The translations under genes were made by a program, and so were the position numbers. This document shows, piece after piece, positions 3,561 through 20,075 of a stretch of 34,084 bases of DNA (position 1 is the first letter of the stretch; every line of letters begins with the position of its first letter). Origin of the DNA: Psammoneis japonica (taxonomy: Eukaryota); the NCBI GenBank assembly GCA_008632985.1, contig QPGO01000180.1:1-34084 (forward strand), given 5' to 3'. The notes under the pieces are model-generated. The model was not told the DNA's origin. It saw only the letters and a list, made by a program, of their open reading frames with translations, and did not search any database.

Positions 3561-4331
3561 TCATCTAGCAGACAAAAGTCGCGACTGAACATTCTGCCTT
3601 TGTTCTTTAGTAGAAATTGCTTCCTGTGTACTCCGAGTACAAATCTTACACGTTGGACTCTTTCTAGATGCTCCCTTTTCTGACCATTGCAAACCTTCAA
3701 TGAGATCAGCAACGCAACGATGGAAATGAATCTCATCTCCGAGTTCATTTGAGATGCCACAAAGCCCGCGGAAGGATTTCACAAAACTCTTTTTATATCT
3801 CCCGTACTCAAAGAATGACTTTGACATTTCTAGTTTTTGCATTGGTTTTTTGTTCACAAAGTCGTGGAATTCGGTGTGAGACAAAATGTCAGCCATGTCT
3901 TGCAACAGTCCCACTGTACACATGGTCAGTGTTTTTCTTGCTTCAGTAAAGTAATCTTCTACCTCTTTATTGTCTTTCTCGGCAGCCTCATTTGCCATGT
4001 GATGAATGTGACGGTCGGCGAGCCTGAGCTTGGTGCGGACCAAGGACAACCTGGCGCCATCTTCCATGTGTCCTTTCGCCTCACGAAGATGAAAGCCGAC
4101 TGTGCGTTTGAAATTTACACCAAATTGATTCACTTTGTCGAGCCAGGCATCATTGAATGGTTCACTCTCGATGCTGCACAGAACACTGTCAAGACAATCC
4201 ATGAAGTTGCACGCGGGCATGTCAATCTTTTCAGAGGATGGAGCGGCATTGCCAGACAGTTTTCTTTGTTTTTTTTCTACAGCAGAGGCCGCCGCTCCCA
4301 AAGAAAGAGACAACAAGCACAAATGCTTCAT
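3561..4331 (-). CDS. Hypothetical secreted protein (256 aa)
   Basis: Uninterrupted ORF with signal-peptide-like start MKHLCLLSLSLGAAASA. No family recognised. Confidence 0.6.
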   Translation of the reverse strand: MKHLCLLSLSLGAAASAVEKKQRKLSGNAAPSSEKIDMPACNFMDCLDSVLCSIESEPFNDAWLDKVNQFGVNFKRTVGFHLREAKGHMEDGARLSLVRTKLRLADRHIHHMANEAAEKDNKEVEDYFTEARKTLTMCTVGLLQDMADILSHTEFHDFVNKKPMQKLEMSKSFFEYGRYKKSFVKSFRGLCGISNELGDEIHFHRCVADLIEGLQWSEKGASRKSPTCKICTRSTQEAISTKEQRQNVQSRLLSAR

Positions 4332-4429
4332 GCTGTTTCGTCAAAAGAGGCAACCTCTGGAGTGGGCTGTCTTTGATCAGATGCGGCACTCGGCAAAAGT
4401 GAGAACCACGGTGCTGATGACACCCACGA

Positions 4430-4793
4430 CTGATCCTCGAACTCGAAGCAAACCGACACAGGCCGGCAACGAAGTTACGTTGATTTCTGCACAAGCAAAA
4501 AAGGATTCGCGCGGCATTTGACCAAGACGAATCTTTTTCCTTTCACTGCTTTCACGCATCAATTTGCCGGAGACCTGAAATGTTTCAAATTGGATGCTTC
4601 TCCATTTTGTTTTTGTATCTGATCCTCGAACTCAAAGCGAACCGACACAGTGACGAAGTCATGTTGATTTCCACAGCAAAAAAGGATTTGCGCGGCATTT
4701 GACCAAGACGAGTCTTTTTCCTTTCGCCGCTTTCATGCACTTGTTTGCCTGAGACCTGGAACAGTTCAACTTAAAAATGCTTCTCCATTTTGT
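4430..4793. repeat. Degenerate tandem duplication of about 180 bp (copies begin at 4430 and 4619)
   Basis: Both copies start CTGATCCTCGAACTC, share GCGCGGCATTTGACCAAGACG and end ATGCTTCTCCATTTTGT. Confidence 0.9.
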
Positions 4794-5883
4794 CACTTTT
4801 GTGTGCTGCTGAGCTGCCAGCATGAGAAAAGCATGCTTGTCAATCAAGCAAAAAGCTTTGTCCACTCAAGCATCTACTGGCACTGCTCCACTTGATGCGC
4901 AGCGCTCCCGGACCCCGGACCTGCCCAAAAGAAGAATTTCGCCATGCTCAAGCACAGAGGGCCTGGGCAAAAAGATGAACAATCAAGCTGACTCCAATGT
5001 TGTGTTGATCAGTGCATGATGCAGTGTGCCAAATGACATCTGCTCTGTTGCTGCAGATGACTCATCCCCAGCAGCGCCTCTCTTGCACCACATGCTGCTG
5101 CGCGTGTGAGCAGTGCGACGAACTGCAGGACGAGGATGAGCACGAGTCAAAAATTTGACTGCAGCATGGCAGCAAGAATTGGGCATGTTGATGATGCATT
5201 TTTTGATGTGCTTCAAGTGACTGTGTTGCCAAAAAGCAGAAAAAAATCTCTCTTGTTGATGCGCAACAAACAAAAAAAGTGCAGTGCGCCACTTGACTGA
5301 AAACGAAAATGAGGGTGGGCGTTGAACCAACAAGTCAACGTTGCCAAAGGGAATCCTCTGAGGCTTCCTGCGCTGCTCGCTGCACTTGTCCTGGTTGCCA
5401 TGGTCGTCCTGATTTGCCCAGAAGCTCTCAACAAACTTCAAGGTTGGTGAGATCGGGCAAAATGAGCGAGAGCGCTCATTTTTGCAAGGTGTCGCCAGAC
5501 TCGCTGCATCAGGATCCGAGACATCTTCTCTTCAATGGCTCTGCTTCCAGGTTTCTCACATTCCTGCTCATTCTAGATGCTCCAACAGTGGGAGCAAAAC
5601 CATCTGTCAATCACAGAGTGCAGCTGTCTGTCCTTTTCCCACAAGCACATCAGCAGCGTCGTTTCTCCCACCTCCTCTTTTTTCTTGTCAGCTTCACCAC
5701 AATGCACAGAGCAACAACAGCACATGCAAAACATTTCATTCTCCATGACAACCTTTTCCAAACTGAATCACAACATCAGTGGATGGGCCGGTGCTGGAGC
5801 AGCAGCCGAAGGAGGAGGTTGAGCAAAAGCTGGAGCCGATCAATTTGAATTGAGATTTCGAAATTTTTGGTTTCCCTCCAACA
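4620..5883. other. TpA-depleted, TG/CA-rich island; probable hypermutated repeat relic of unknown origin
   Basis: Only three TA seen by eye (about 4772, 4875, 5574) in about 1.26 kb. Overlapping Cys/His-rich, Tyr-free ORFs in many frames. Confidence 0.75.
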
Positions 5884-6129
5884 TACATCCGGGTTTTTAA
5901 AGTAGAGCTTGTGTAGATTTCTACGTGCCTGAATTGGAATCGTCGTGACGCACTCCACGCGCGACAACGAAAATAACTGAAGCGAGCTTGTCTCGAGACT
6001 GACTCGTGAGTCACAAGAAACAAGAAGCCCCCGCCGCAAGCCGCAACATCGCAGAAGTCTCAAAAGTCAACAACAGCAAAACAAATTGGAGCCCACGATT
6101 GCAAGCTTTACCGTTTAACTTTGAACAAA

Positions 6130-7506
6130 ATGGGTGATGGCGACGGCGTAGTGAGAAATGAAGAAACACCTCTTCAAAGCAACACTGGGTCGAATACTCT
6201 TGCCATCTGTGGTCGTGTCCTCAACGTTGGAGCGATTGGGTGTCTGTCGATTTGTGTCGTGTTTTTGTTTGTTCAATTGCAAGCGGTGACGTATAAGGTT
6301 GCCGCTGATCACCAACAAGTAGAGCAACAAATAAAGCAACTGCAGGATCAAATATCGAATGAAGAGACACAAACGCAAGAAATCGAAGAAGACGTACAAA
6401 CACAACACAATCTGACCGTCTATCACATGGCTGGGACCTTTTCGCTCTTGACGTGTCTTATAACCATGTTTCACATGTCGGCGCACCTTCGAAATTTCCA
6501 TCAACCCATTATTCAACGCAAAATTTTAGCCATTCTCTGGCTGTCGCCAATTTACAGCGTCACCTCTTGGCTGAGTTTGGTGTTCCCCGCTGCCGATGGG
6601 TATTTGGGAATCATTAAGGATTTTTACGAGGCCTACGTGATTTATCAATTCCTTTCGTTCCTCATTGCCGTTCTGGGGAAAGGAGATCGGGACGTGGTTG
6701 TGGAAGTACTTGCCCAGCATGCGGACCATTTAGACAAGCCCTATCGATGCTTAAACTGCCTGTACCATCCACCACCGAACGAGGGCGATCGAGCCATGGC
6801 GAACGCAGTGTTGCTGCAATGTCAAGTATTGACCATGCAGTTCGTACTCTTTCGCCCACTCACGTCTATCCTTCGGTTCATCCTGGATATAATTGAAGAT
6901 TACCACGACAATGATACAGGCTCTGACACGTCAGGTTACGCTTTCTTCATGTCTGCCAAATTCATCATTGCCATGATTCAGAATGTGTCTGTCTTTTTGG
7001 CGTTTGCGGGTCTACTCAAGTTCTACCATGCCGTCCGAGAAGATCTGGCGTGGTGTCAGCCCTTTTCCAAGTTTTTAACCATCAAGGGTATTGTCTTCAT
7101 GACGTTTTGGCAAGGCCTTGTGATTATGATTGTGTTCAACATTCACCAAGGTGGAAGTGACACAGAGGACGACAACGACAGCAACAATCCCATCGAGTCG
7201 CCTATGTCTATTCAGAATGTGCTCATTTGCATCGAGATGCTTTTGTTTTCCATAGCTCACTGGTGTGTATTTCCAACGGAAGAGTGGGAAGACAACTACC
7301 GTATAAAATACTACGAGAAACCAGGTTTTGGTTTCAAAGATTTTGCACATGATGTAGGAATGATTGTCAGTCATGGTAAAAAGGCCAGAGCAACAAGAAG
7401 TAAGAAGCGAGAGGGGTTGGAACGAATTCCAACGGACGAAGACAATGGCCCGACCTTGGATAACGAAGGTCTTGACAATGACGATCTCGTCGAACGATAT
7501 GCCTGA
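6130..7506 (+). CDS. TMEM184 / organic solute transporter OST-alpha family membrane protein
   Basis: QRKILAILWLSPIYSVTSWLSL, DFYEAYVIYQFLSFL, QFVLFRP, KFLTIKGIVFMTFWQG and QNVLICIEML motifs. Multiple transmembrane segments. Confidence 0.92.
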   Translation: MGDGDGVVRNEETPLQSNTGSNTLAICGRVLNVGAIGCLSICVVFLFVQLQAVTYKVAADHQQVEQQIKQLQDQISNEETQTQEIEEDVQTQHNLTVYHMAGTFSLLTCLITMFHMSAHLRNFHQPIIQRKILAILWLSPIYSVTSWLSLVFPAADGYLGIIKDFYEAYVIYQFLSFLIAVLGKGDRDVVVEVLAQHADHLDKPYRCLNCLYHPPPNEGDRAMANAVLLQCQVLTMQFVLFRPLTSILRFILDIIEDYHDNDTGSDTSGYAFFMSAKFIIAMIQNVSVFLAFAGLLKFYHAVREDLAWCQPFSKFLTIKGIVFMTFWQGLVIMIVFNIHQGGSDTEDDNDSNNPIESPMSIQNVLICIEMLLFSIAHWCVFPTEEWEDNYRIKYYEKPGFGFKDFAHDVGMIVSHGKKARATRSKKREGLERIPTDEDNGPTLDNEGLDNDDLVERYA

Positions 7507-7618
7507 GGCGCCCTACTCATAATTCGATTATTGCACATTCAATAACTAATTAGACTCCATGATATAAACTAAGCGCCCAATATACCACTGCTACTCGAAA
7601 GGTGTCACAACGTCGCGT

Positions 7619-9205
7619 TTAGGCGGTAAGAAGCTGCCAAGCCTTCTTCAGCTTGCTGCCTGCGGACGAGAGGCCCCTTTTCTGGTCATAGTCGGGAACA
7701 AGGAGTTGCGATGCATCCGTAACAGGTTTGAAGCCCTCCGGGAAAACATCGCTTTGGGCAAGAACGCTGCACTCGGTCGGACTGGCACAATAGACTGCCT
7801 GAACAATTTCCTGAAATGCCACCCATCGGTTCTCTTCTGCTGACTTGTCGGCGGCAATCACCATGATGAGAGCCACGAGACCATCTTCTCCGGTGCATGG
7901 GACAGGCGTATCGTTAACAAGCGATTCACAAAAGGCCACAGTCTCTGTGACATAGGCCTCATTGTATCGAGAGAGGAAGAAGTCATACGGCATATCGGCG
8001 TTTCCAGTGAAATCTGTGGGCCATCGCGGGACGAAGCAGAATAGAAATGAGTAACACTACAGGCAACGACACAGTTGTAGGGCAGCAAAACTGTGACTTA
8101 CCGCTCTTGAACACTTTGGCGGTATTTGGGTAAACATTGTCAGTTTGGATCATTCCTTTGGTTCCAAGTACCTCGGCACGCTGGTCGTAGCCATATGAAG
8201 ACTGGCGGCACACATCGACCATTGCTGTCACGCCGTCCGGATAACGAACAACGCATGATGCCGTATCATATTTCTCAGACCCATCCAAAACTTCGATAGA
8301 CTTGTCAATATGAGTGGATCCAACAGCAAGGATCTCAACGGGATCAGTTCCCGCAAGGAATCGAGACATATCCTGCAAAGAGAAAAAATCCATTGAGTGA
8401 TATGAGTCCCACAAAAGTATGAAACATGGACATAAAGCGAGTGATTCCAAACCTACCAAATCGTGTACAGCCATGTCTGCAAATATGCCTCCGCCGCCTT
8501 TGACATATTCAAACGGAGGAGGTGCGGGATCACGGGAGCACAACTTAATCATGATGTTTTTTCCAACCTCATCATGTTCGATGGCGGTTTTGACACGTTG
8601 AAAGTTCTGATCAAAGCGTCTCTGCAAACCAATCATAAGTTTGACACCAGCTTCGTTACAGGCGTTAATGGCCTCAACAGTTTCAGGCAAGTCTGTAGCG
8701 ATTGGCTTTTCACAAAAGACGTGCTTCCCATTTTCAGCACAAGCCTTGATTTGATCGGCGTGGTATTGAGACGGAGAGCAAATCCAAACAGCGTCCACTT
8801 CCTCATCGGTAATGACATCCATTGCGTCATCACTGAACCTGGGAACACCAAAATCAGCAGCGGCTGGAAAGAAAAACAAAGAGTGTGGGTGAGGTTCTGG
8901 CTTGTCTTCGTCCCCTACTTCGCATATCGGGGTTGACAATACATCAGACGCAACACACCTTTCTCGGCCTTCGAAATTGTGGGATTAGAGACAATTACGG
9001 GAGTGACGTTTGGAGCTTTTGTAATGGCCCCAAGATGCACCAAACCGATTCGACCACATCCAATAACGCCGACCTTGATGTTCTTTTCGGCGGAAGATGC
9101 CTCAACATTCATTTTGAGAGCTGATCGTCGGATACCCGCATTTGTGAGGGTAAAAGCCTCAACTCCAGGAGCGAGAATCGCGAGGAAAAGAGCAAATACC
9201 CTCAT
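7619..9205 (-). CDS. Myo-inositol 2-dehydrogenase-like Gfo/Idh/MocA oxidoreductase, copy 1, probably plastid-targeted
   Basis: Rossmann VGVIGCGRIG, HVFCEKP, QRRFD, SRDP, DMAVHDLD and YGYDQRAEV motifs. Four exons with GT-AG introns 8864-8958, 8373-8456 and 8014-8101. Signal peptide ending VEA-F, resembling the diatom ASAFAP motif. Confidence 0.92.
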
Positions 9206-11419
9206 TTTTGACTGCTTCGCAATCTCCTCCGATTGGCAATTCCTTCGACAAGACGTGTCAACAGCCGTCGGGGGCTTCTTTGTCTCGCTTCGGTGTGTCT
9301 CAAAATCTTGTGGGAGTTGGGAGTTCAAAAAACGCGCACGTCAGTGGTTTCGAGCACCCCTGAGCGGGGAATCTGGATACGAGAACTGCGGGGTTCGTTG
9401 ATTGAGTGAGTCGTATCGTCGTCTATGTTTCGAAAACACATTCATCATTCATCGCCACAATGAACATTTCATACCCGCATTGACATCCACTCGGCGGTTG
9501 TCAATTTTTTTCGATGTCCTCCCCTTGAATGGCTTGGAGAAACATCCGAATGGTGGCTCTGCCCACCTTGGCCACTCTTTGTTCTTTGTCAGCCACATTT
9601 GATGGACAAAATCGGCTGCTGTGCCAACTTTGTAGTTCACTCATTTGAGAGAGGGCGAGAGAGAGTGTGTGTGTTGAGCTGACAAAGTCAATGTCGCCAA
9701 AAGGGAGTCCTGTGAGGCAGGTTTGCTGTGCTGCTTGCCACACTTGCCCTGGTTGCTGTGGCAGCTGCAGCTTGCCTGGAAGCCCTCAATGAACTTTGAC
9801 TTTGCAGCATGACAGGCACCCACTGATGTCACAGTGCAGTTTGTGTGAGCCAGATGATTCGCTCCAAAGAGTGAGACAAAAAAAAGGTTGGCAAGATCTC
9901 TGGCAGGTGCACATTCACACGTGCAAGGTCACCAGATCCACCACATCAGGAGTCAAAGTGCCCTCTCTTCAACAGCTCCGGGGTTCTGACATCTCCTGCT
10001 CATTCCAGATGCTCCAACACACTTCTGCCACTCTTGTTGATGTTCAGAGTGCTTGCTCTTCACACACCAGAGTGGCCCCAACAGGGATCTCTGCAACAAA
10101 TCTGCTGGCCCAATCTTCTTGGTCATCGCTGTCATCATCTTCCACTTTGGCGCACTGCCAGTCAGCACGTCACTTTTCGTCAGCAAAATTCAACATCTCA
10201 TTGAGCGCATCATCTGTGACATCTCGTGTGCACTCCACAAACTTGACAATGCAACCACAATGACTCCACTCCACTGAGCTCATCACATGCTGAAGGTCAA
10301 GGAGCAATCAATCCATGACCCAGCCATTGACCACTTTGGGGCCCAACACAAAGAATCCTGTTTTCTGACAAGTCCATTTTGTTCCGGGTCTTGCATTGTT
10401 GATGTTGGGACCAAAAAACAGCACCGACTTCTGTGCATCAAAGAAAAGTCCATTCTTGTCTCACACCATCCCATGATGGACCTTGCCATGCTCACAGACT
10501 CTCAGACTCTCAGACTGAGCTTCACGAGTGGCCCACAAACCCCCTTGTCATCCATGCCATGTGCTGGACAGCTGACTGTTGACACATTCAGAAGCACAAG
10601 AGCATCTTGTCTGTCCAGCACAAGCTGAAGATTCCTGTTCCTGGATCCAGCAATGCATTGGTCCCAAGAGTGTTTTTCTTGGACCTGCTGTGCTCTTTGT
10701 GATTTCAACAACATGCCTTGCCCTGCAACTTGACGTCAAAGCCAGTCATCTGCCAGAGTCCACTGGCCTTGTGCACATTCATTCCATGCATCTTGGTGTC
10801 ATTCATTGCACTCCTGGCATCATGCAAGGAGAACATTGGTGCAGTGGTGGACACACACCTCAATTGATTTGGCGTCCAATGTCTCACAGTGTCATCATGC
10901 AACTCTCTCATGGCACCGTGTCTTTGCTTCCACAGCTCTGCCCACATTGGCTTGAGCAAAATTGCTGGTGTCTTTTCACAAGTGTGGGTTGATCATTGGT
11001 GATGTCCCATTGCTTGCAAGCCATTGCATGAGTTCTTCTTTTGCATGCACAAAATGCACTGTTGCCTCCCTGCCACATGTTCTGGGACAATGTCCGCTTC
11101 ACTCCTCTTTCTTTTGCTCATTGTTTTGGTTGCATGTTGCTCTGTGGAACAATGAATCCAGACCATCAAACCACACCCAACAATTGCTTGGCTGCTCTGA
11201 TGTGATTGGTTCAAAAAATGATGCAACACCCAAAGTTGCAGTGGTGTTGTCACTCACAACTGTCACTTGCTGTCACAAACCATGTGCACATTCTTTGAGG
11301 CTCTTCACTCACCTCATGTTTGCACTGAACATTGAACTTTCAAGGATCTTTCACTCACTTCTTGCATCAGAATTCTTGTCTGACATCACAAAAATCATGA
11401 TCCGCTCTGGACGTGCTTT

Positions 11420-14400
11420 TGTCCAACTGCCCACAAAGGCTTGTTGGAACTTTTGAAACTTCTTGCCCTGTGATGGCTTTGTCATGAAGTCTCAGTGTTG
11501 TCAGCAGGACAACACTGTGCTTGTGAGCTGTCCTTCTTCTCAATTTGAGCAGCAACAAAGAAAAAATGCAGAATGTTGAGTGCTTGTGACTGCTTGCCGG
11601 CACTCTTGCACCCATCAGCTTCCAGCAGGATGGTGCTCTTGTTGTCCTGGCATGGGATGTTCTTGTCAATTGGGTGCTTTTGGTGCTCCATGAATGACTT
11701 TTGTCCATGGCATCATGGTCACAGCATCATCAACTCCAACAAGCTCAGCTTCCATGCTGCTTCAGGTGTTGAGCTTCTGGTGCTTCAAAGCAGCCTGCAC
11801 TTCTCCATTGCTCGTTGTCACAACACCTTCAGCGTGGCTCTTGAAATTGAAATGTGCTGCAAATGATGTGCCCGCATGCCACTTGACAACTTGGAGGTCC
11901 TCATGCTTCATGATTGATGCAGCAACTTTGTTTCTTGTCTGGTTCAAACACTTGAGACAATGGACTGGCTTCCCCCCAATCTTGTTGGCAGGAGATCTTG
12001 CCCACATGCATGATGTGGTGACAGTGGGGCGCACATCCATTTGGCCTCTCTTGGACACACAAGTGTTCCCTTGGCCACTGACATCAAAGGTTTGAGCCTT
12101 CTCATCTGACAATCTTGTTGCAGCGTGCATGCAGACAAAAGGTTGTTTTTGTCATGACATTTGTGACTTTTAAAGGCTGCAACACATCACCGTGATGCAT
12201 CAACTCTTGCAAGCAGCTGGGTGTTGCATGATGCATGGGGAGGAGTGCAACATCCAGCTGCACGTGAGAGTCAATGCATCATGGCGACATGTTGCAGCCT
12301 TTAAAAGTCACAAAGGTCGTGACAAAAACAACCTTTTGTCTGCATGCATGCTGCATTGTTGTCAGGTGTCAAATGTCTTCTCTCTCTGCATGGTGTCATG
12401 GCAAAATCTGCACTCTTTAACTTTTCCAGAACAAGTTGATTGATCATCTTGCAAACATGGTCTGCCATGTTGACTTTCACTTTGCCCTTTTGGCTGAAGT
12501 TCAGGGTCATGCCAAGATGGTCATGTCTCCTCCTTTGTGCAGCAATGACTTCACCATGATGGCTTCCACACATCTCATTTAGCCAGCCCAAAAATTTGTC
12601 ATTTGCTTTTGGGTTCTTGTGGTTTGATGACAACAGGTCATCAACATGGAATTAAATCATGTGCTGCTTGCCATTGACAGTTTGATTGGCAATGCACAGA
12701 TCATGTGGGTTGAATTTAGACCCTGTCTTCTCCAAGTCTTGGTGCAACCAAACATGCCACAGCGAAGTCGTGTGACCAACATGCCACAGATGGCTCTGAT
12801 GACTTTAATGCAAAGGACTCTCTTGCCTTTCTCTGGGGCCAAACAAGGTCTGTGCAGGTTGGCATCAATGCTTTCTGGCATGTCCACTGGCACTCCTGTG
12901 ATCTTCATTGCCAGGAACATGAGCACTCGTTTCACATTGCAGCCTTTGTGGGCATGAACAATTTCAAATTGCCGTCATTTACATCCCCACAAGGCATGCA
13001 GCAAGGCTGGCTGACTTGTCTTTGTCCGGCCATTCTCAGGTCACTTTGCCACCACAAATCATTCACCTTTTTGTGCAATTGTTTTAATTCTTGGTGCTGA
13101 CACACTGGTGCAAAGCACACTCAGTCATGCAACTGTTTGTTGATTGCTTTCTCTGAGGCATCACACCCCTTCTGCCAAATGCTTCAAGGCCTTCATGGAG
13201 CAAATGTTGCTGGCAAAACATGCACCCTCTCCACTTTGGAGTTGGCCATCAATCTCACACAGCAAGTGTGCGGCCATTGCTGTCTCTGCTTCATGTTCAA
13301 TGTCATCCTCTGGATTGGGACTTGTGTTGGGCTTGTGTTGCTCCTTCACCACTTTTCCGGCATCTGCCACTCCTTCAAATTGAGCTTTCTTCTCTTGGTG
13401 TTTGTGTGACGCCATGTTGAAGGATGCCCTGAGTGTTTTGCCACTTCTTGCAGCTCTGCTTGACACAGCTGTTGTTTCTTCCTCCAGTCATTCACCTTCC
13501 CATCTTGTTTTTTCCTGGGATTCTTTGTCCTCTTTGGACTCTTCACTCTCACAGTGTTCATCTTCTGGGTCATCGTTGACCTCTTGCTCTTCTTGAGCTT
13601 TGCATTGTCAATCAGGGCTGGTCCTTTTGTCAGCCATTGTGTGTTGTCTGCTTCATCACATTCATCATCTGAGAGACAGGTTCATCTTGACAGTCTTCAT
13701 CTTCTGACTCAGTTGCACAGCTTGCACCACATTTGCTTTCTTTGCTTTTGTCATCCCTGTTGTGGTTGCTTTTGGTTTTGTTGTTGTCCACTCCTGCAGT
13801 CCAATCAGCATTGCCTAAATTGTCTCCACATTTTCCCACAAATTTGAACTCCTGCTTGATGCCTTGTCCAATGGTCACATCCTTGACAGCTGCAACATGC
13901 TTGTTGGTCAAGGAAATCTCATGGAGGTGCACTTGCAGGGATTCAATGACTTGTTGCCCATGTGCACCAGGTTCATGGCATGGTGTCTGCGCCTTTTGGC
14001 AAACCAAAATGTGGTCACAGGCAGATGCTGCCAACACCATGTGCTTCTGCAGCATTTGTTTTCTCACTCTTGATGTGGGAAATGACAAGTTCCCCAAACT
14101 CAAGCTGAAAGTGTTTGTTGCAGTCAAGGTCACTTGACAGTGTGTGTGGACTGCGTTGGAAATCCCTTCCTTTTGCAGGCACACATTAAACATGGCAGTG
14201 TTCTTTATCTTGGCTTGCTCGCACATCAGCTTGGGTGTCATCTTTTGTGGCACATGATTGCAGTGGCTCTGGTTTGCTCCCTGATGGTTTGAATGTTCTG
14301 CTCAACCTCCAGAATGTGGTCCTTGGCATTTGCAGATGTGAGTTCTAGAGTCATGCCATCCACAACTTGGAGCCACACTTGACAAAGTCAATCTTGAACA

Positions 14401-16280
14401 GGGCCACATTGTGCTGTCAGAGAATCATGTCCAAGGCTTTGCAAATGTGATCATGCTTCTTGGACCTCAGCATCACACTCAATTGACATTTGATTGTCTT
14501 GTCAACTGCGCGCAGCAACTCAGCACCTCATTCTTCCATGACATCAATGCAGAGGGTCACACCTTCTCTTTGCTTCTCATGAATTTCAGGTGAAATGTCA
14601 ACAATGTCATTCCTCTCACAGGAACAACATGCACACTTGGTCTTGCCTTTCAGTGCATCTGTTGGTGGACCCCAAATGGCTGTCATTCTGTCCACATCTT
14701 CAGGGATGATGGGTGGGTTCTGCACCTGATTGGACTGCAAAAGCAGCTTGAGATCCCTTGCACTGGGCATTCCAGCCTTGCAGTGCAGTCTGAGTGCTTC
14801 CTCATTGCCCACCACTTCTCATTCTTTAGTGCAGCTTTTCACATTCTGTTTCACAGCAGTGACAATTGCTCCTGATGAACTCCTGTGCTTCTTGTCCATC
14901 TTCTTCATGACCTTCTTGTCCTTTGACAGCATGCTCACATGAAACTCATCTTTTTGGAGCTCTTTTGCATGGTTGAGGAATCGCTGGCTTGGTGCAAATG
15001 CATGCAGTCTGATGTCATTGACTTTAAAGACCATGACTTGTTTTCCACAGTCTTCTCATCTGGTGGATGGAGCTCACCTGCTGCCTTGTTGTCATGTGCA
15101 ACATGGTGCTTGCTCTTCACATCTTTTAGACTCAGGATTTTTGCCATCATGCTCTGTGACCCAAGCTTCACATCACTCTGTCCTGGCATTGTGCAGCATT
15201 CATCCAAATCCTTTGTTGGTGGACAGATTGATTTTGATCATTGCTGGTCACACATTGTGCACTGGTTTCCAGCTTGCCGCCATGCTGAGGGCAGAGCCAT
15301 TGTCAAGGATGATCTCATCTGACTTGATGCCCCTGTTGGCTTGGCTCAAACTCATCTGTGACCTTTCATTGGCCTGTTCATCTGCTTGGAACCCATGTCA
15401 AACAAGATTTCTCTTGCTCTTGCCAGAGCTTGCTGATTGACTGGATCTGTGGTGGGTGCCCACACTGATGTTGTGTGGCTGCTCACTGATTCAAACAGTC
15501 TTCATCTTTTTGTGCATGACTGTGTCCCCTGGCAACCGGTTTCCCGCCGATGTCTTCTTGTGCCATCCTTCTGCAGGATCTCATCCCTGTGCTTGCAGTC
15601 TGGGGCTTGTGGTTTGGCACACTCAGGGCATGACCATGGTCTTGTGGGTTCCTGGACTTGTTGTCAGCCCTGTTTCCATTCTTGTTGCTGGGACAATCAT
15701 TGTTCTTTTTGTTGTGATGCTTGCAAGGGTCGTTGTTTTTTAGATCATTCAGTGGCACATCCATTGCCTTCTCAAGGGTCTTCAGATGTGGGTCAATTCC
15801 TGGACCACAATCTCTCACAAGGCTTTGCTTGAGGCTCTTGCAGCATCGGTCATCACTGCTCTCCATGAACAGAGGCATGTGGTCCACCATGTCTCATGTG
15901 CTGGCATCATTTGGCACCTGCTGTGCTGTGCCAATGCTGTTCTTGCACTCCTTGGCATTATCAACAAAGCCATCTGGCATTCTGCTGCCAAGACCATTGC
16001 TTGTGGCATCTTGTTGACTCATAAATCTTGATGGGCAGCCAATCAGTGATTCACCCTCTTGTTGTTGCATGTCCGACATGTGCTTGAGAGACTTGGCAAG
16101 TGTGCAGAATGGATGTTGACCTCTCTCACAGAGTCAAACATTGGTGGCTGGATCAGCTTCAACAGCTTGACAGGGTCATCTCTGAAGCTCTTGCATTTGT
16201 GATCGGCTGGCACTCTTTGACTCATGAGCTTGGTGTGCAGCAATCATCTGGGATCACTGCACACCACCCAGAAAATCCAC
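11420..16280 (-). mobile_element. Degenerate Ty1/copia LTR-retrotransposon internal region (diatom CoDi-like): gag-PR-INT-RT-RNaseH
   Basis: Gag DDPVKLLKLIQ and PHLKTLEKAMDV (about 15700-16275). Protease IILDNGSALS (about 15300). Integrase IWGPPTDALKGKT, VTLCIDVM and DHILEVEQNIQTIRE (about 13900-14830). RT RAICGML, FHVDDLLSS and DHLGMTLNFS (about 12000-13100). RNase H QKLNT*SSMEAELVGVDD, QDNKSTILLE and MTKPSQGKKF (about 11420-11910). Many stops and frameshifts. No LTR pair found. Confidence 0.93.
12119..12355. mobile_element. Foldback/MITE-like element: about 110-bp inverted arms around a 17-bp spacer, inserted in the copia RT
   Basis: The left arm TGCAGCGTGCATGCAGACAAAAGGTTGTTTTTGTC matches the reverse complement of the right arm, which ends ...GACAAAAACAACCTTTTGTCTGCATGCATGCTGCA. 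Flanked by direct repeats TTGT at 12115-12118 and 12356-12359. Confidence 0.85.
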
Positions 16281-17640
16281 AACAATGGCTGGCCTCCCAG
16301 CACAGAAGGAGCAAGCTCAAAGTGAGCAATGGACAAACAAGAGTGACAGAGCATGGCTGCACATGGGTGAGCAACATGCTGGCAAAGTCATGCACACAGA
16401 GCACCAAACAAAAAAATGTCAAGCATGGCACCACCACATGTGTGGCCCACACCAAAGACAAAAGACAAGCGCAGTCAATCAAATTTTCTCTGTGTGCAGG
16501 GTCATCAGAAAACACAATGCCAGCCTTTTTGTTGTGCTGTTTCCAGTGCTGCATCACTGGAACCTGCTTGCCACCCAGCAGGGAGGAGCACAGTCAAAGG
16601 CCAGGGGGAGGCAGCTCAAAGCTGTGGCATTGCACAGACTCCTGGTCTGTGGCAAGAGTGGCGGCACTTTTGGTCTCATCTTGCTCAAGCAGGTTTTGAC
16701 AAGACATGCCAAAACACATGAGCAACGCAACAGAATTTGGGGCATTTTTGCTGATTTGCAGAGAGGAGGTGCAAAGTCTTGCATGTGTCCACCACAGCTG
16801 TGCCAGAAAGAGTTGTCTCTGGGCTTCCAGAGAAGAGCTTCACAAACAAACAGAGTGTTTTTCATGTGACAACTGGGGTTTGGTTGCCCCAATGACTGGA
16901 GAGGCTGACCATCTTTTTGCTGCCCAATGGCACCCACCCACAAGAACAACTCTTGGATTTAGAAAGAAATTGCAAGGGAGTTGCACAAATGAAGACACAC
17001 CTGAAACTGTGCAGCATGCTGCAGCACAAGCATCTGAACCTGCATCACTGCCCCAGGTTTCATTTTTGAAGCACTGAAAAATGTGACATCTTGTGTGACA
17101 GAACAACTTTTTCAACCATGACACTCTTCCAACTTCTTGTCAAACACACAATGTGGTGCAACTCTTTCCCTGTGACAAAGTCAGGGCATGGGCCAGATCT
17201 CTCATGGCTGTGACCTGGCAGCCAGGTGTGCATCAACTCAATGTTTGGCACACAGTGTTGCCAAAGCAAACAAGTCAGCCACATGATGGCTGACTTGCAA
17301 CATTTTGGAGATTGGAACCAAAAGAGGCAGACTTCAGGTGGCCTCTCAGGCCTCAGAGTTGGGGAGACAATGTTAGCCTTGAGTTGTGAATTTCTCGTCT
17401 TTAGAGCACGGCAGGTGTGTGTCTTTCTCTGTTTCCAAATGCTTGGAAAACTACGATATTTCATAAACTCTGTAAGATGTCGTTTGTTTGCTCTACGTAA
17501 TCCAGCATATTATCACGATTCGAGTCCAGGAAATCACCGTTTCCGTCAAATCATTCGTCAATGACTATTGGGCGCCTTTGTACACGAAAATTCCTTAAAC
17601 AAGCCAATCCAACCATTGCTACTTAGTCTCAAACCAACAG

Positions 17641-19235
17641 TTAGGCAGTAAGGAGCTGCCAAGCTTGCATCCACTTATTTCCTGCTGATGAGGTGCTTTT
17701 CCGTTGGTCATAATCGGGAACAAGAAGATCCGATGCATCCGTAACAGGTTTGAAGCCCTCAGGGAAAACATCGCTTTGGGCAAGAGTGCTGCATTCGGTT
17801 GGAGTGGCGCAATAGACTGCTTGTACAATTTCCTGAAAGGTCACCCATCGGTTCTCTGCAGCTGACTTGTCCGCAGCAATCGCCATGATGAGAGCCACGA
17901 GACCATCTTCTCCAGTGCACGGGACAGGCGTGTCGTTCACGAGAGAATCACAAAAGGCAACCGTCTCCATGACATAGGCCTCATTGTATCGAGAGAGGAA
18001 GAAGTCATAAGGCATGTCGGCGTTTCCAGTGAACTCTGTATGTCGATCGTGCTGGTGAGCCAGATGTGACAATGAATAACTCCAATGTCAACCGCAAATT
18101 TGTAGGAAAGCAATTGTGACTTACCGCTCTTGAAAACTTTGGCAGTATTTGGGTAAACATTGTCTGTTTGGATCATTCCTTTGGTTCCAAGTACCTCGGC
18201 ACGTTGGTCGTAGCCATACGAAGATTGGCGGCACACATCAACCATTGCCGTCACGCCGTCCGGGTAACGAACAACGCAGGATGCCGTATCGTATTTCTCG
18301 GACCCTTCCAAGACTTCGATAGACTTATCAATATGAGTGGATCCAACAGCAAAGATCTCAACTGGATCAGTTCCCGCAAGGAATCGAGACATGTCCTACG
18401 AAAACGCCAAATAATCAATTGCTGTGAACCTTAGTCCCAATAGCATAAAAACTTTACAAACAACAAGTGATCAAGACCTACCAAATCGTGAACAGCCATG
18501 TCTGCAAATATGCCTCCGCCACCCTTGACGTACTCAAACGGAGGAGGTGCAGGATCACGGGAGCACAATTTAATCATGATGTTTTTCCCAACTTCGTTAC
18601 CTTCGATGGCAGTTTTGACGCGTCGAAAGTTCTGATCAAAACGTCTCTGCAAACCAATCATTAGTTTGACACCAGCTTCGTTACAGGCGTTAATGGCCTC
18701 AACGGTCTCCGGCAAGTCTGTAGCGATTGGCTTTTCACAAAAAACGTGCTTTCCATGTTCGGCGCAAGCCTTGATTTGATCGGCGTGGTATTGAGACGGA
18801 GAGCAAATCCAAACAGCGTCCACTTCCTCATCGGTAATGACATCCATTGCGTCATCACTGAACCTGGGAACACCAAAATCAGCAGCGGCTGGAAAGAAAA
18901 ACAAAGAGTGTGGGTGAGGTTCTGGCTTGTCTTCTTCCCCTACTTCGCAATCGGGGTTGACAATACATCAGCCGCAACATACCTTTCTCGGCCTTCGAAA
19001 TTGTGGGATTGGAGACAATTACGGGAGTGACGTTTGGAGCTTTTGTAATGGCCCCAAGATGCACCAAACCGATTCGTCCACACCCAATGACGCCGACCTT
19101 GATGTTCTTTTCGGCGGAAGATGCTTCGACATTCATCTTGAGAGCCGATAGTCGGGTCCCGGGACTATTATTTGTGAATGCAAAACCCTCAACTTCAGGA
19201 GCAAGAATCGCGAGAAAAACGGCAGCTATCCTCAT
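17641..19235 (-). CDS. Myo-inositol 2-dehydrogenase-like Gfo/Idh/MocA oxidoreductase, copy 2, probably plastid-targeted
   Basis: Near-identical protein to copy 1 with the same intron positions (18889-18982, 18396-18481, 18036-18124). Signal peptide MRIAAVFLAILAPEVEG-F. Confidence 0.92.
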
Positions 19236-20075
19236 TTTCCGGCTGCGTACAATTTCAACCACTTGTCCTTAGAGTAGAAGCTTGGACAACGAGTTGTGAA
19301 GAAATGAAACAACCGATGACTTCTTCGTCTGCGGACCTTATGTTCGACATACGACACCAGTTTTCCGCGTCGTTGCACGTCGAACAATTCTTCGGGTTCC
19401 ACCCACGCACGTCAGTTCTTTTTGGCGCACCCTTGGCGGTTTTGAAAATTTGACATCACATCATGGACAATTTCTCCACGAAATCCACAGTATCAGATAT
19501 ACATACGGCCCATTCAAATAAAATCACTACTTGTATTTGTATGAGACATCTGTTCGCTGGTCAGACAGTTTCCTGGAATGACGTGGAGTCGGCGGGAACT
19601 TCCTCTTGACATACAGTACATCCTTTTTTTCTTCTTCTCCAGGAGAGCGTTGCCGACATGTTTTGAATGAATTTAGATGCGTCCGTGTCAATTGCAGCAC
19701 CTCGTGTTGTCCGCTAAGCAAACGTCATGCTTGACAGCAATTTACTGTACCTCTTTGTGAGTATTGGTGGTATTTTCTCTCGGTTACTTTGACGCCGCGG
19801 AAACAGGGTCTTCTGCGGGCGGCCTTGCGTGCTCGATTCACTCGATTGGCCATCATCGGTTGACTGAAACTCTCGTGATGAAATACGGCTTTCGATTGAT
19901 ATCCCAAAGATACTCTTGCTGAGCTAGTTTGAGTAGGCGTATTTGTGATGCAAAGTTCCTAGTGTTGTCACAATTGTGGCACAACGCCAAAGTGCACGTG
20001 TTTTACCTTCCCACTACGGTACGAGGAGATTCAAGCGGACAAAGTCCGTGCTCCCATTTCTTGGTAGCAGGTACA

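Follow-up and report, generated by a model that had tools for sequence, protein, structure and literature searches.

Known systems of directed hypermutation

To our knowledge, no cellular process directed specifically at the destruction of TpA in invading DNA was known before the appearance of a 2026 preprint on the chlorarachniophyte Bigelowiella natans. In that study, two integrated viral regions received 231 of 302 new mutations, and 230 of these 231 were A>G/T>C changes, all of them at TpA (Mettrop et al., bioRxiv 10.64898/2026.01.13.699255). The preprint reports these mutations from mutation-accumulation lines at approximately 1e-7 to 1e-6 per site per generation, in a hypermutation that is not constitutive and is directed at giant-virus or virophage inserts, with adjoining host genes unaffected. 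Its genome survey couples TpA depletion to CpA+TpG enrichment in clustered windows, and reverse transcriptase (RT) and DDE endonuclease are over-represented among its TpA-poor coding sequences.

Fungal RIP likewise wrecks mobile DNA copy by copy through transition hypermutation, with sharp domains and a heavy mutational load at low divergence; it acts on duplicated DNA, makes TpA from CpA and lowers GC content. APOBEC3 and ADAR leave deaminase-type transition hypermutation in the relics of animal retroelements, and both are strand-specific (acting on the cDNA minus strand or on RNA) and produce strand-coordinated tracts, with APOBEC targeting C and ADAR editing ApA as well. The TadA/ADAT2 tRNA deaminases, together with the adenine base editors derived from them, convert A to G where the A follows T or U, and we know of no demonstration that any natural enzyme of this family works on the chromosomal DNA of algae. 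Deamination of 5-methylcytosine at CpG, in turn, cannot remove TA. In diatoms, methylation is described as mainly CpG, concentrated on repeats and binary in pattern (PMC5124317).

Here we describe a window of 34,084 nucleotides from the diatom Psammoneis japonica (contig QPGO01000180.1), in which TpA has been erased from a nest of mobile DNA. The initial annotation of this window knew of no published description of such a process; one exists, in the B. natans preprint, which was the only report of the signature in diatoms or elsewhere found by a literature search that covered few subscription journals. The two hosts belong to distant groups, a stramenopile here and a rhizarian in B. natans, and the target here is a retrotransposon/MITE nest instead of a viral insert.

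A block with erased TpA and CpG

The following features of the window are referred to below.

3969..5883, unstranded: second patch, TA erased and CG mostly retained; 7 TA, TA fraction 0.0037, CG fraction 0.039
4423..4794, plus strand: two tandem units of ~190 nt within the second patch, differing mostly by transitions
5289..5587, plus strand: segment of the second patch that is a transition-diverged copy of 9641-10019; 66-69% nucleotide identity, 96-98% identity in purine/pyrimidine code
7619..9208, minus strand: left GFO/IDH/MocA oxidoreductase gene, copy 1 (Pfam PF01408 and PF22725; spliced contig of run X2); normal composition, control
9635..17395, unstranded: main block by composition, TA and CG erased, TG/CA doubled; a patchwork of repeated DNA flanked by two tandem genes
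11399..12118, minus strand: putative continuation of the pol gene by tblastn, downstream of the RT and separated from it by the hairpin insertion
12119..12355, unstranded: MITE-like hairpin of 237 nt in the RT, with two 110-nt inverted arms and a 17-nt spacer
12356..13230, minus strand: putative decayed Ty1/Copia-type RT, read in frames -2 and -0 (frameshift near 12655)
13970..15046, minus strand: putative upstream part of the same or a similar pol gene (tblastn, 20 loci, best E 2e-19, L025)
17641..19238, minus strand: right GFO/IDH/MocA oxidoreductase gene, copy 2 (Pfam), 88% identical to 7619..9208; normal composition

A dinucleotide position scan placed the longest TA-free gap of the window between 9633 and 12171 (2,538 nt), a length whose probability at the flank TA frequency is, by simple arithmetic, approximately e^-90. 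Altogether, 20 TA occur in 9634-17373 and 22 in 9640-17440, and 58 CG are found between 9635 and ~17400; at the right edge, dense TA resumes at 17374 and CG at 17396. In 15 consecutive 500-nt bins (9501-17000), the observed/expected ratio was 0.00-0.14 for TA, 0.04-0.30 for CG, 1.6-2.1 for TG and 1.7-2.5 for CA, compared with ~0.4-0.75 for TA and ~0.8-1.3 for CG in the flanks, and both edges of the block are sharp. Expressed as dinucleotide fractions (9635-17450), TA and CG amount to 0.0028 and 0.0074, against ~0.035 and ~0.057 in the flanks. These values reproduce the main compositional observations of the initial annotation, namely ~2.5 kb without TA, roughly 20 TA in 7.8 kb, flanks with ordinary TA content, sharp boundaries and TG/CA enrichment (observed/expected 1.6-2.5). 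The loss of CG is as strong as that of TA, a feature that the annotation had underrated.

The total of pyrimidine-purine steps is essentially preserved (0.2458 in the block versus 0.242-0.244 in the flanks), and the purine-pyrimidine steps GC, AT, GT and AC are the same in the block as in the flanks, matching the prediction for transitions from CG and TA to TG and CA. ApA shows no depletion (AA observed/expected ~0.8-1.5). GC content remains at 0.44-0.51 in block and flanks alike, whereas RIP lowers it; with TpA lost and CpA/TpG doubled, the direction of change is also opposite to that of RIP, which does not fit on these grounds. The TA, TG and CA values of the block are more extreme than the cut-offs of 0.43 and 1.52 used in the B. 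natans preprint, and saturation is more advanced (TA observed/expected ~0.03, compared with 0.45 reported there for the NCLDV region). CpG is erased here too, and is absent from the main text of that preprint. Sites of the form Y-TA-R are relatively spared, accounting for 16 of the 20 remaining TA in the block versus 15.6% in the flanks (P 3e-10), a sparing of which the preprint's Results and Discussion make no mention.

Repeat content and flanking genes

The DNA of the window was found in a single public run, X1, in the form of short-read-type k-mer contigs with a single-copy depth of ~57-66. X1 depth over 9237-16040 is 200-1,100, and X1 contigs of other copies break off at 9850, 12117, 12355, 13811, 14636 and 15319. 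The block is repeated DNA that comprises a putative decayed minus-strand Ty1/Copia-type retrotransposon, a MITE-like hairpin and further repeat fragments. A phmmer search with the read-through RT protein (P0121) against 1.84 billion proteins gave 5 matches at E<=1e-3, the top one of which (P0122) bears Pfam RVT_2 and is matched by BLASTP at E 1e-10. A profile search collected 77 RT homologues, many with PF07727 (RVT_2), and tblastn of 12334-13230 (minus strand) against 72 loci reached a best E of 2e-34. The homology of the window RT to RVT_2 (PF07727) runs through these intermediate proteins, a direct Pfam match being absent even at E<=10; Pfam searches of 59 stop-to-stop ORFs, six read-through frames and selected ORFs at the same threshold returned nothing credible in the block. 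The predicted continuation of the pol gene is matched in 54 loci (tblastn of 11399-12175, minus strand; best E 4e-29, L016), and for its predicted upstream part, purine/pyrimidine codon periodicity keeps frame -1 across 14251-15750. An ORF at 14943-15437 (plus strand) lies on the non-coding strand, and a word-indexed protein search with it gave no match. BLASTN and purine/pyrimidine-coded BLAST found no direct repeat pair inside the block that could represent LTRs, and the Copia relic may be truncated or nested.

The hairpin is short and bears terminal inverted repeats, its arms being 87% complementary at the nucleotide level and 98% in purine/pyrimidine code. Its copy number is high, with an X1 depth of 23,257 in bin 12072-12638 (~400 times single copy), and X1 contigs with joints at 12119>12365/12366 represent empty sites, in which the host element lacks the hairpin. 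All of these are MITE properties. A search of metagenome contigs for an exact 21-nt stretch of the hairpin arm gave 0 matches.

The block lies between two tandem diatom oxidoreductase genes, into which the erasure does not leak (TA 51 versus 51 and CG 86 versus 88 in copies 1 and 2). Erasure is limited to mobile DNA, as is reported for foreign or mobile DNA in B. natans, and the presence of RT in the erased DNA recalls the TpA-poor coding sequences of that alga.

Direction of change

Within the window, the direction of change is read from 17 Tyr and 22 Arg columns of the alignment with TA-normal relatives. At the 17 Tyr columns the window has CAY in 8, TGY in 5, another codon in 4 and Tyr in 0, and at the 22 Arg columns it has CAN/TGN in 13, with AGR kept in 4 and CGN in 0; the remaining residues are retained in 40-75% of columns. 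TA was converted to CA or TG, and CG likewise, rather than the reverse. The 13 of 17 Tyr columns with CAY or TGY correspond to the outcome in B. natans, where only TpA>TpG and TpA>CpA are described. The initial annotation had considered that intact copies might be equally TA-free; among the RVT_2 homologues, 62 of 80 have at least 3% Tyr, so that TA-normal relatives are the majority. A protein-level replicate comes from 13 Tyr columns in 8 Tyr-poor homologues (H 22, C 21, Y 4, other 5), and the same columns in the window ORFs read C 4, H 3 and F 1.

Transition-diverged copies and a second patch

Repeat copies within the window share 66-86% nucleotide identity and 95-98% identity in purine/pyrimidine code, differing almost solely by transitions. 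Of the 113 pyrimidine-purine steps that four repeat pairs have in common, 17 show a double difference of the CA/TG type; for the duplicated flanking gene the figure is 2 of 341. The tandem units at 4423..4794 differ by 28 transitions and 5 transversions, with 4 CA/TG double differences among them. The patch in which they lie was overlooked in the initial annotation. Its CG fraction of 0.039 stands against 0.057 in the flanks, its pyrimidine-purine total is 0.233, and CG is retained there at positions where the main block carries TG or CA. X1 contigs of other copies connect 5398 to 9851. Segments shared by the patch and the block were counted where purine/pyrimidine-coded BLAST backed them, as transition-tolerant local alignment overran past 5590/10020.

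Mutation spectrum in related copies

Substitutions by context were tabulated in 23 copies from metagenome contigs, which come from outside the window's own genome and are related to the window only via the RT; changes were polarised by the column-majority consensus, and at least two rows (L022 and L023) are not independent, having a mutation pattern in common. At 74 TA sites (957 cells), TA was present in 64.4%, TG in 17.8% and CA in 15.6%. A>G changes at TpA reached 321 of 1915 (0.168), compared with 0.016-0.033 at ApA, CpA and GpA, and transversions at TpA were not raised; this 5-10-fold excess over other contexts settles for these copies a point on which the initial annotation had made its proposal depend, and demonstrates that the change is specific to TpA. 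C>T changes at CpG were similarly specific, at 223 of 1613 (0.138) versus 0.021-0.025 in other contexts.

Loss of TA per copy ranges from 3 to 70%, and is uncorrelated with both CG loss (rho 0.22) and background transitions (rho -0.07), reaching 70% of sites at ~1% background divergence. Such variation among the metagenome copies parallels the non-constitutive hypermutation described for B. natans and does not point to a dependence on duplication as in RIP. Since copies of one family range so widely, repetition alone is not the trigger. The two losses are also separated between loci: a TA-only locus (L067) has 1 TA in 1,387 nt at a CG observed/expected of 0.62, a CG-only locus (L025) has 3 CG in 3,852 nt at a TA observed/expected of 0.85, and loci with both losses are also present. 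The processes acting on TpA and CpG are independent of each other.

In any one copy, TA>TG is as frequent as TA>CA, with no strand bias and no tracts, and the two outcomes are randomly interleaved (142 runs versus 137.8 expected). Both strands are acted upon, in contrast to the strand-coordinated tracts of APOBEC3 and ADAR, and ApA, which ADAR also edits, is undepleted. ADAR-type RNA hyper-editing fits neither the interleaved runs nor the AA ratio of the block. Sparing of Y-TA-R recurs in this family, where 26% of such sites are lost versus 53% of R-TA-Y sites; split by outcome, this influence of context reaches significance for TA>CA (P 1.8e-5) and not for TA>TG (P 0.24).

Proposed mechanism and alternative explanations

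Taken together, a nest of silenced mobile DNA was probably hit by two separate transition processes, methyl-CpG decay and a targeted conversion of TpA to TpG/CpA. The first would be deamination of 5-methylcytosine, turning CpG into TpG/CpA. With CG observed/expected at 0.04-0.30, no CGN in the Arg columns and elevated C>T at CpG, the CG half of the signature is attributed to such decay on the basis of predicted methylation. As known from vertebrates, plants and diatoms, methyl-CpG decay accounts for the CG>TG/CA half and for the sharp edges (PMC5124317). It fails on its own, as TA is lost with CG retained in the second patch and in L067 and the per-copy losses are uncorrelated. The second process would change the A of TpA to G, whichever strand carries it; it would target certain copies or regions, proceed in bursts and not at a clock-like pace, and be saturated in the block. 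A conversion of TA to TG/CA apart from methyl-CpG decay, as proposed in the initial annotation, is borne out by the Tyr columns, the TpA spectrum and the X1 contigs, whereas its description as repeat-confined was too narrow. The process may be carried out by an enzyme, steered by the silenced state and employed in genome defence. Among enzymes, a DNA-acting adenine deaminase of the TadA/ADAT2 type is the leading candidate; its A>G change after T corresponds to that seen here, and the pyrimidine favoured next to the A is reminiscent of U-A-C in the tRNA anticodon loop.

A DNA adenine deaminase might also be dispensable. A mutagenic base modification at TpA in silenced DNA, such as a modified adenine or a thymine that a TET/JBP-type enzyme has oxidised to 5hmU/5fU and that mispairs with G, or else biased repair, could cause TA to drift to CA/TG, and we regard this as unlikely. 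Palindromic TpA was hit equally and independently on both strands, as expected for a symmetric mark like CpG methylation, the edges of the TA-loss domain coincide with those of CG loss, and thymine modification prefers TpA in other protists. However, TA and CG are lost independently of each other from copy to copy and from locus to locus, bursts that take as much as 70% of sites at ~1% background divergence look more like an episodic enzyme than a standing mark, and we know of no such modification in diatoms. RNA-level A-to-I editing at UpA by ADAR- or ADAT-like enzymes, with edited retrotransposon transcripts fixed via reverse transcription, is very unlikely, even though the main element is a retrotransposon and such enzymes favour U before the edited A (bioRxiv 10.64898/2026.01.13.699255). 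It is opposed by the equal and interleaved TA>TG and TA>CA changes, by the intact AA content, and by the erased domain, which stops at the edges of the whole nest instead of one element and includes the hairpin, non-coding and low-copy parts alike; the B. natans events, as the preprint describes them, arose in resident integrated DNA (bioRxiv 10.64898/2026.01.13.699255).

It is highly improbable that the elements were born or selected TA- and CG-free, for example in escape from a nuclease or RNA decay. Some 200 nt from other copies in the same genome likewise lack TA and CG, but TA-normal relatives predominate, the Tyr and Arg columns bear the mark of conversion rather than avoidance, one copy may have TG where another has CA at the same site, and pyrimidine-purine steps are as numerous in total as in ordinary DNA; with the frames broken, there is also no protein under selection. 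An artefact that sequencing, base calling or polishing would produce on modified DNA has a negligible probability. The initial annotation had raised the possibility that independent short reads show TA at the erased sites, and the X1 contigs, which cover 9071-9777, 9753-11486, 13213-13805 and 15753-17905 with 1, 3, 0 and 11 differences and cross both block edges, give the TA-free sequence. The sequence was found in one study only, and because X1 may be the sample from which the window itself was assembled, this support is not fully independent. Nevertheless, X1 yields the same block from k-mer contigs at depth ~60 in records up to 315 kb, allelic or copy differences in them also sit at TG/CG/CA/TA steps, the signature is present in unrelated assemblies and metagenomes, and strand-specific miscalls at CG would be expected to create TA as well, of which none is seen. 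Contigs of another run, X2, taken as RNA-like because one of them is spliced, give no cover over 9237-19442 and have no bearing on expression.

Returning to the targeted conversion of TpA, a wider proposal is that diatoms and chlorarachniophytes share an old TpA-editing genome defence acting on double-stranded chromosomal DNA. In this defence, a natural TadA/ADAT2-like DNA adenine deaminase with a preference for T-A-pyrimidine would attack individual silenced transposon or virus copies. Its bursts would hit either strand, would not depend on CpG methylation and would go on until no susceptible TA is left. We advance this tentatively, as a possibility that falls short of an even chance; if true, such a defence would be the mirror image of fungal RIP and the natural counterpart of laboratory adenine base editors.

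Implications

The window preserves a long-term footprint alone, in contrast to the new mutations followed in B. natans, yet it is the same footprint, gone to completion, in a diatom, a different major lineage of ecological weight with transformable model species. RT homologues drawn from several unrelated assemblies and from metagenomes carry it too, which suggests that the TpA process is widespread rather than the curiosity of one alga. Any mechanism is constrained by independence from CpG decay, copy-by-copy bursts, interleaved two-strand action and Y-TA-R sparing. Genomes can be screened for Tyr-free, Cys/His-rich RT relics and for repeats that match only in purine/pyrimidine code. As TA-erased relics evade Pfam and ordinary repeat finders, transposons in such genomes are probably under-annotated. 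If an enzyme is responsible, it would be a natural DNA adenine editor.

Composition of the erased block

Across the 34,084-nt window, 890 TA and 1,534 CG dinucleotides were counted, with just 20 TA from 9634 to 17373 and a longest TA-free gap of 2,538 nt, from 9633 to 12171. In 15 consecutive 500-nt bins (9501-17000) of the TA- and CG-erased block (9635..17395), observed/expected (o/e) ratios are 0.00-0.14 for TA, 0.04-0.30 for CG, 1.6-2.1 for TG and 1.7-2.5 for CA, at a steady GC content of 0.44-0.51; flank values are about 0.4-0.75 for TA and about 0.8-1.3 for CG. Dense TA and CG resume on the right at 17374-17396, and the edges of the erased domain lie no more than tens of bases from the flanks. 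The TA-free run of about 2.5 kb, the roughly 20 TA in 7.8 kb, the TG/CA enrichment and the sharp boundaries against ordinary flanks described in the initial annotation are thus all borne out. The pyrimidine-purine share of dinucleotides is 0.2458 in the block vs. 0.242-0.244 in the flanks, block TG+CA equals the sum of flank TG+CA, CG and TA, and the four purine-pyrimidine steps are the same in both, as predicted by transitions of CG and TA to TG/CA. A second TA-poor patch (3969-5883) contains 7 TA only and mostly retains CG (0.039 vs. 0.057).

The block is flanked by two copies of an oxidoreductase gene:

7619-9208, minus strand: GFO/IDH/MocA oxidoreductase gene copy 1, in tandem with copy 2
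17641-19238, minus strand: GFO/IDH/MocA oxidoreductase gene copy 2, 88% identical to copy 1

These duplicates lie 10,022 nt apart, the space between them being filled by a repeat nest, and they are equal in TA (51 and 51) and CG (86 and 88), with symmetric differences (115 transitions, 69 transversions). The erasure makes no distinction between the putative Copia relic, a hairpin, repeats that are non-coding and the low-copy DNA at 16600-17400. Genes around the block have an algal look (LCIB-type carbonic anhydrase, cyclophilin and others), and the best named matches of an Ostalpha-like neighbour gene are diatoms, at 50-60% identity only; the host is accordingly a diatom with no close sequenced relative, and not Bigelowiella. 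In X2, a public run behaving like RNA, a spliced contig (6024-8863) is unbroken from 6024 to 8013, then passes over three introns (88, 84 and 95 nt; minus-strand GT..AG), covering the plus-strand Ostalpha-like gene and the minus-strand oxidoreductase gene; it may represent either convergent transcripts that overlap or an extended 3' UTR.

The window DNA occurs in one public study. Contigs of its run X1, which has a single-copy depth of about 57-66 and records as long as 315 kb, match 9071-9777, 9753-11486, 13213-13805 and 15753-17905 with 1, 3, 0 and 11 differences and span both block edges, which rules out assembly and polishing errors; X1 is not an independent sample, because it may be the assembly's own source. 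Most of the differences shown in TA-poor parts fall at TG/CG/CA/TA steps (window vs. contig: TG vs. CG 4, CA vs. CG 2, CG vs. TG 2, TA vs. CA 1, TG vs. TA 1, TG/CA double changes 2).

Constitution of the block

Depth over 9237-16040 is 200-1,100, vs. about 57-66 for single-copy DNA, and 1,184 contigs show at least 80% likeness; the block is repeated DNA. Other copies end, as contig ends, at 9850, 12117, 12355, 13811, 14636 and 15319. Its recognizable parts are as follows:

12119-12355: MITE-like hairpin, 237 nt, 110-nt arms, 17-nt loop
11399-12175, minus strand: tblastn-matched part, best E 4e-29 against 80 fetched loci
12334-13230, minus strand: tblastn-matched part, best E 2e-34 against the same loci
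13970-15046, minus strand: tblastn-matched part, best E 2e-19 against the same loci

The bin containing the hairpin reaches a depth of 23,257, about 400 times single copy. The hairpin behaves like a MITE, since it is missing from other copies of the element that hosts it (joints 12119>12365/12366). Both arms keep TTTAAA, which holds the first TA beyond the 2.5-kb TA-free stretch, and 5 CG remain, so that the hairpin looks younger than its host.

No Pfam match was found in any frame of the block. A purine/pyrimidine codon model trained on 12 flank genes (in leave-one-out tests, the true frame ranked first for 11 of the 12) detected traces of coding periodicity in the minus strand, where 8 of 53 block windows exceed the 99% null, in the frames of the longest minus-strand ORFs. 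P0121, translated from 12657-13802(-) straight through the stops, each entered as X, had five matches at E<=1e-3 among 1.84 billion proteins; the best, P0122 (BLASTP E 1e-10), carries Pfam RVT_2, and a profile search yielded 77 homologues, many with PF07727; the diatom Cylindrotheca is the named source of one. Together with the tblastn matches, these similarities point to a Ty1/Copia-type pol gene, now dead and interrupted by the hairpin, as the core of the block. An LTR pair was sought in the block and not found. The plus strand of 9635-17450 is pyrimidine-rich (YY 0.31 vs. RR 0.20; T 0.298, A 0.224), which fits the minus strand as the relic's coding strand.

The TA-poor, CG-retaining patch also bears a 259-aa ORF at 3561-4340 (-), with no Pfam match and no match to Copia loci, which may be a hypermutated gene; frame -2 periodicity extends over 12 consecutive windows at 3601-5250 (score up to 15.8, null 99% = 9.9).

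Direction of change within the window

Recoding to purine/pyrimidine reveals repeats nearly invisible to ordinary comparison. Transitions account for almost all differences between their copies.

Repeat pairs before and after recoding
5361-5441 vs. 9719-9799: nucleotide identity 69%, recoded 96%
5491-5543 vs. 9928-9980: nucleotide identity 66%, recoded 98%
Hairpin arms: nucleotide identity 86%, recoded 98%
Tandem units of about 190 nt in the second patch, 4423-4794: nucleotide identity 78% with recoded 95%, or 81% with 92%

In these four pairs, TG in one copy faces CA in the other at 17 of 113 shared pyrimidine-purine steps, and such double differences occur at 2 of 341 steps in the flanking gene duplicate; they are expected if each copy independently lost a hypermutable CG or TA. 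CG sites kept by the second patch are TG or CA in the block.

Polarity was assessed at 39 codon columns (17 Tyr, 22 Arg) in which the window codon aligned to at least four of 39 TA-normal loci (TA o/e >=0.6) with at least 60% residue agreement among aligned loci. Tyr is kept at 0 of 17 Tyr columns (CAT/CAC 8, TGT/TGC 5, TTT 2, TGG 1, TCA 1), and the 13 CAY or TGY codons follow the TA to TG/CA direction initially proposed. CGN is kept at 0 of 22 Arg columns (CAA/CAG 6, CAT 2, TGA 2, TGG 1, TGT/TGC 2, kept AGA/AGG 4, others 5). Other residues are kept at 40-75% of columns, with Leu>TCA/CCA, Ile>ACA/ATG, Val>GCA and Thr>ATG as the usual side products.

A protein-level replicate used 82 aligned sequences and 13 columns with Tyr in at least half of 62 Tyr-normal homologues. 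Here eight Tyr-poor homologues have H 22, C 21, Y 4 and other 5, and the window ORFs C 4, H 3 and F 1. Other residues change less: 33 of 46 Phe cells and 47 of 60 Asp cells are still Phe and Asp. The eight Tyr-poor proteins, from several sources, contain 0-1 Tyr each and 7-11% Cys+His, vs. mostly 2-6% in Tyr-normal homologues. P0147 and P0161, near-identical RT proteins from one source, differ mainly at Y/H, Y/C, R/C and C/H, which suggests ongoing TA and CG decay between recent copies in a sequenced organism.

Mutation spectrum and sequence context in related copies

The 80 loci, fetched from metagenome contigs with protein P0141 as query, range in whole-locus o/e from 0.01 to 0.90 for TA and from 0.03 to 1.18 for CG. 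L067, with 1 TA in 1,387 nt and CG o/e 0.43-0.74, is a pure TA-erasure state in another assembly; L025 (3 CG in 3,852 nt, TA o/e 0.68-1.01) and L043, Copia-type like L025, with CG almost absent and TA normal or mildly low, represent the pure methyl-CpG-decay state.

Twenty-four loci at least 85% identical to L002 gave 23 copies after removal of L010 (identical to L004), L022 and L023 being non-independent rows because they share a mutation pattern. Over 2,457 columns, a majority consensus from at least six copies was assumed as the starting state. The polarised context spectrum envisaged in the initial annotation was thereby obtained on relatives, from metagenome organisms other than the window's and related to it through RT alone: A>G occurs at 321 of 1915 TpA (0.168) vs. 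0.021 at ApA, 0.033 at CpA and 0.016 at GpA, A>C/T at TpA (0.011) is the same as in other contexts, and C>T occurs at 223 of 1613 CpG (0.138) vs. 0.021-0.025 elsewhere. The 74 consensus TA sites (957 cells) read TA 64.4%, TG 17.8%, CA 15.6% and other about 2%, and the 66 consensus CG sites (806 cells) CG 68.9%, CA 15.3% and TG 12.3%. TA loss per copy ranges from 3% (L064) and 5% (L002) to 66-70% (L001, L005, L014), and across the family correlates neither with CG loss (rho 0.22, P 0.33) nor with transitions at other sites (rho -0.07); L014 lost 70% of its TA with background transitions of just 1.1%. In two further contig series (pairs L018/L024 and L033/L036), TA/TG plus TA/CA is the commonest difference class.

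Among the 20 residual TA of the window, 17 are TTA and 16 have a pyrimidine before and a purine after (Y-TA-R), a context comprising 15.6% of flank TA sites (excess P 3e-10). In the 23-copy family, 53% of R-TA-Y are lost vs. 26% of Y-TA-R, and A>G at TpA by next base is 0.22 for C, 0.21 for T, 0.09 for A and 0.10 for G. At site level, the context effect is significant for TA>CA (0.23 vs. 0.08, P 1.8e-5) and not for TA>TG (0.18 vs. 0.14, P 0.24).

Mechanism and significance

Diatom methylation is mainly CpG, repeat-concentrated, binary and sharply bounded (PMC5124317), and CG loss in the block is probably explained by established biology, methyl-CpG decay. TA loss needs a second process, as the initial annotation had argued and as its independence from CG loss upholds. 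According to the data, this process is specific to TpA, makes transitions only and strikes either strand, and it does not depend on CG decay; in the related copies it also singles out particular copies and comes in bursts. A process of exactly this kind, there caught as new mutations, is described for Bigelowiella natans in a preprint by Mettrop et al. (bioRxiv 10.64898/2026.01.13.699255): 231 of 302 new mutations fell in two integrated viral regions, 230 of these 231 being A>G/T>C, all at TpA, in 11 of 15 lines and at about 6e-7 per site per generation. The preprint also counts 124 clusters of windows poor in TpA and rich in CpA+TpG, and puts forward an ADAT2-like enzyme as candidate.

Given the TpA-specific data and these new mutations, the window is probably the saturated long-term footprint of a B. 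natans-type process in a diatom, with TpA erasure superimposed on methyl-CpG decay and a DNA adenine deaminase as the candidate agent. The deaminase is the leading but unproven agent; its chief mechanistic rival is either a mutagenic modification of the TpA bases or a bias in repair. Editing of RNA, with the edits then fixed through reverse transcription, is disfavoured by the random interleaving of TG and CA outcomes within copies (142 runs vs. 137.8 expected).

The initial annotation knew of no published description; a literature search mainly of openly readable papers yielded none for diatoms and, for other organisms, only the 2026 preprint on B. natans. The window is a further case of a very recently described kind of TpA hypermutation. 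It extends this kind to another major lineage and to a transposon/MITE target, and it adds saturation, the sparing of Y-TA-R and TpA loss that coexists with and yet is independent of CpG decay. Several unrelated assemblies also show signs of this footprint.
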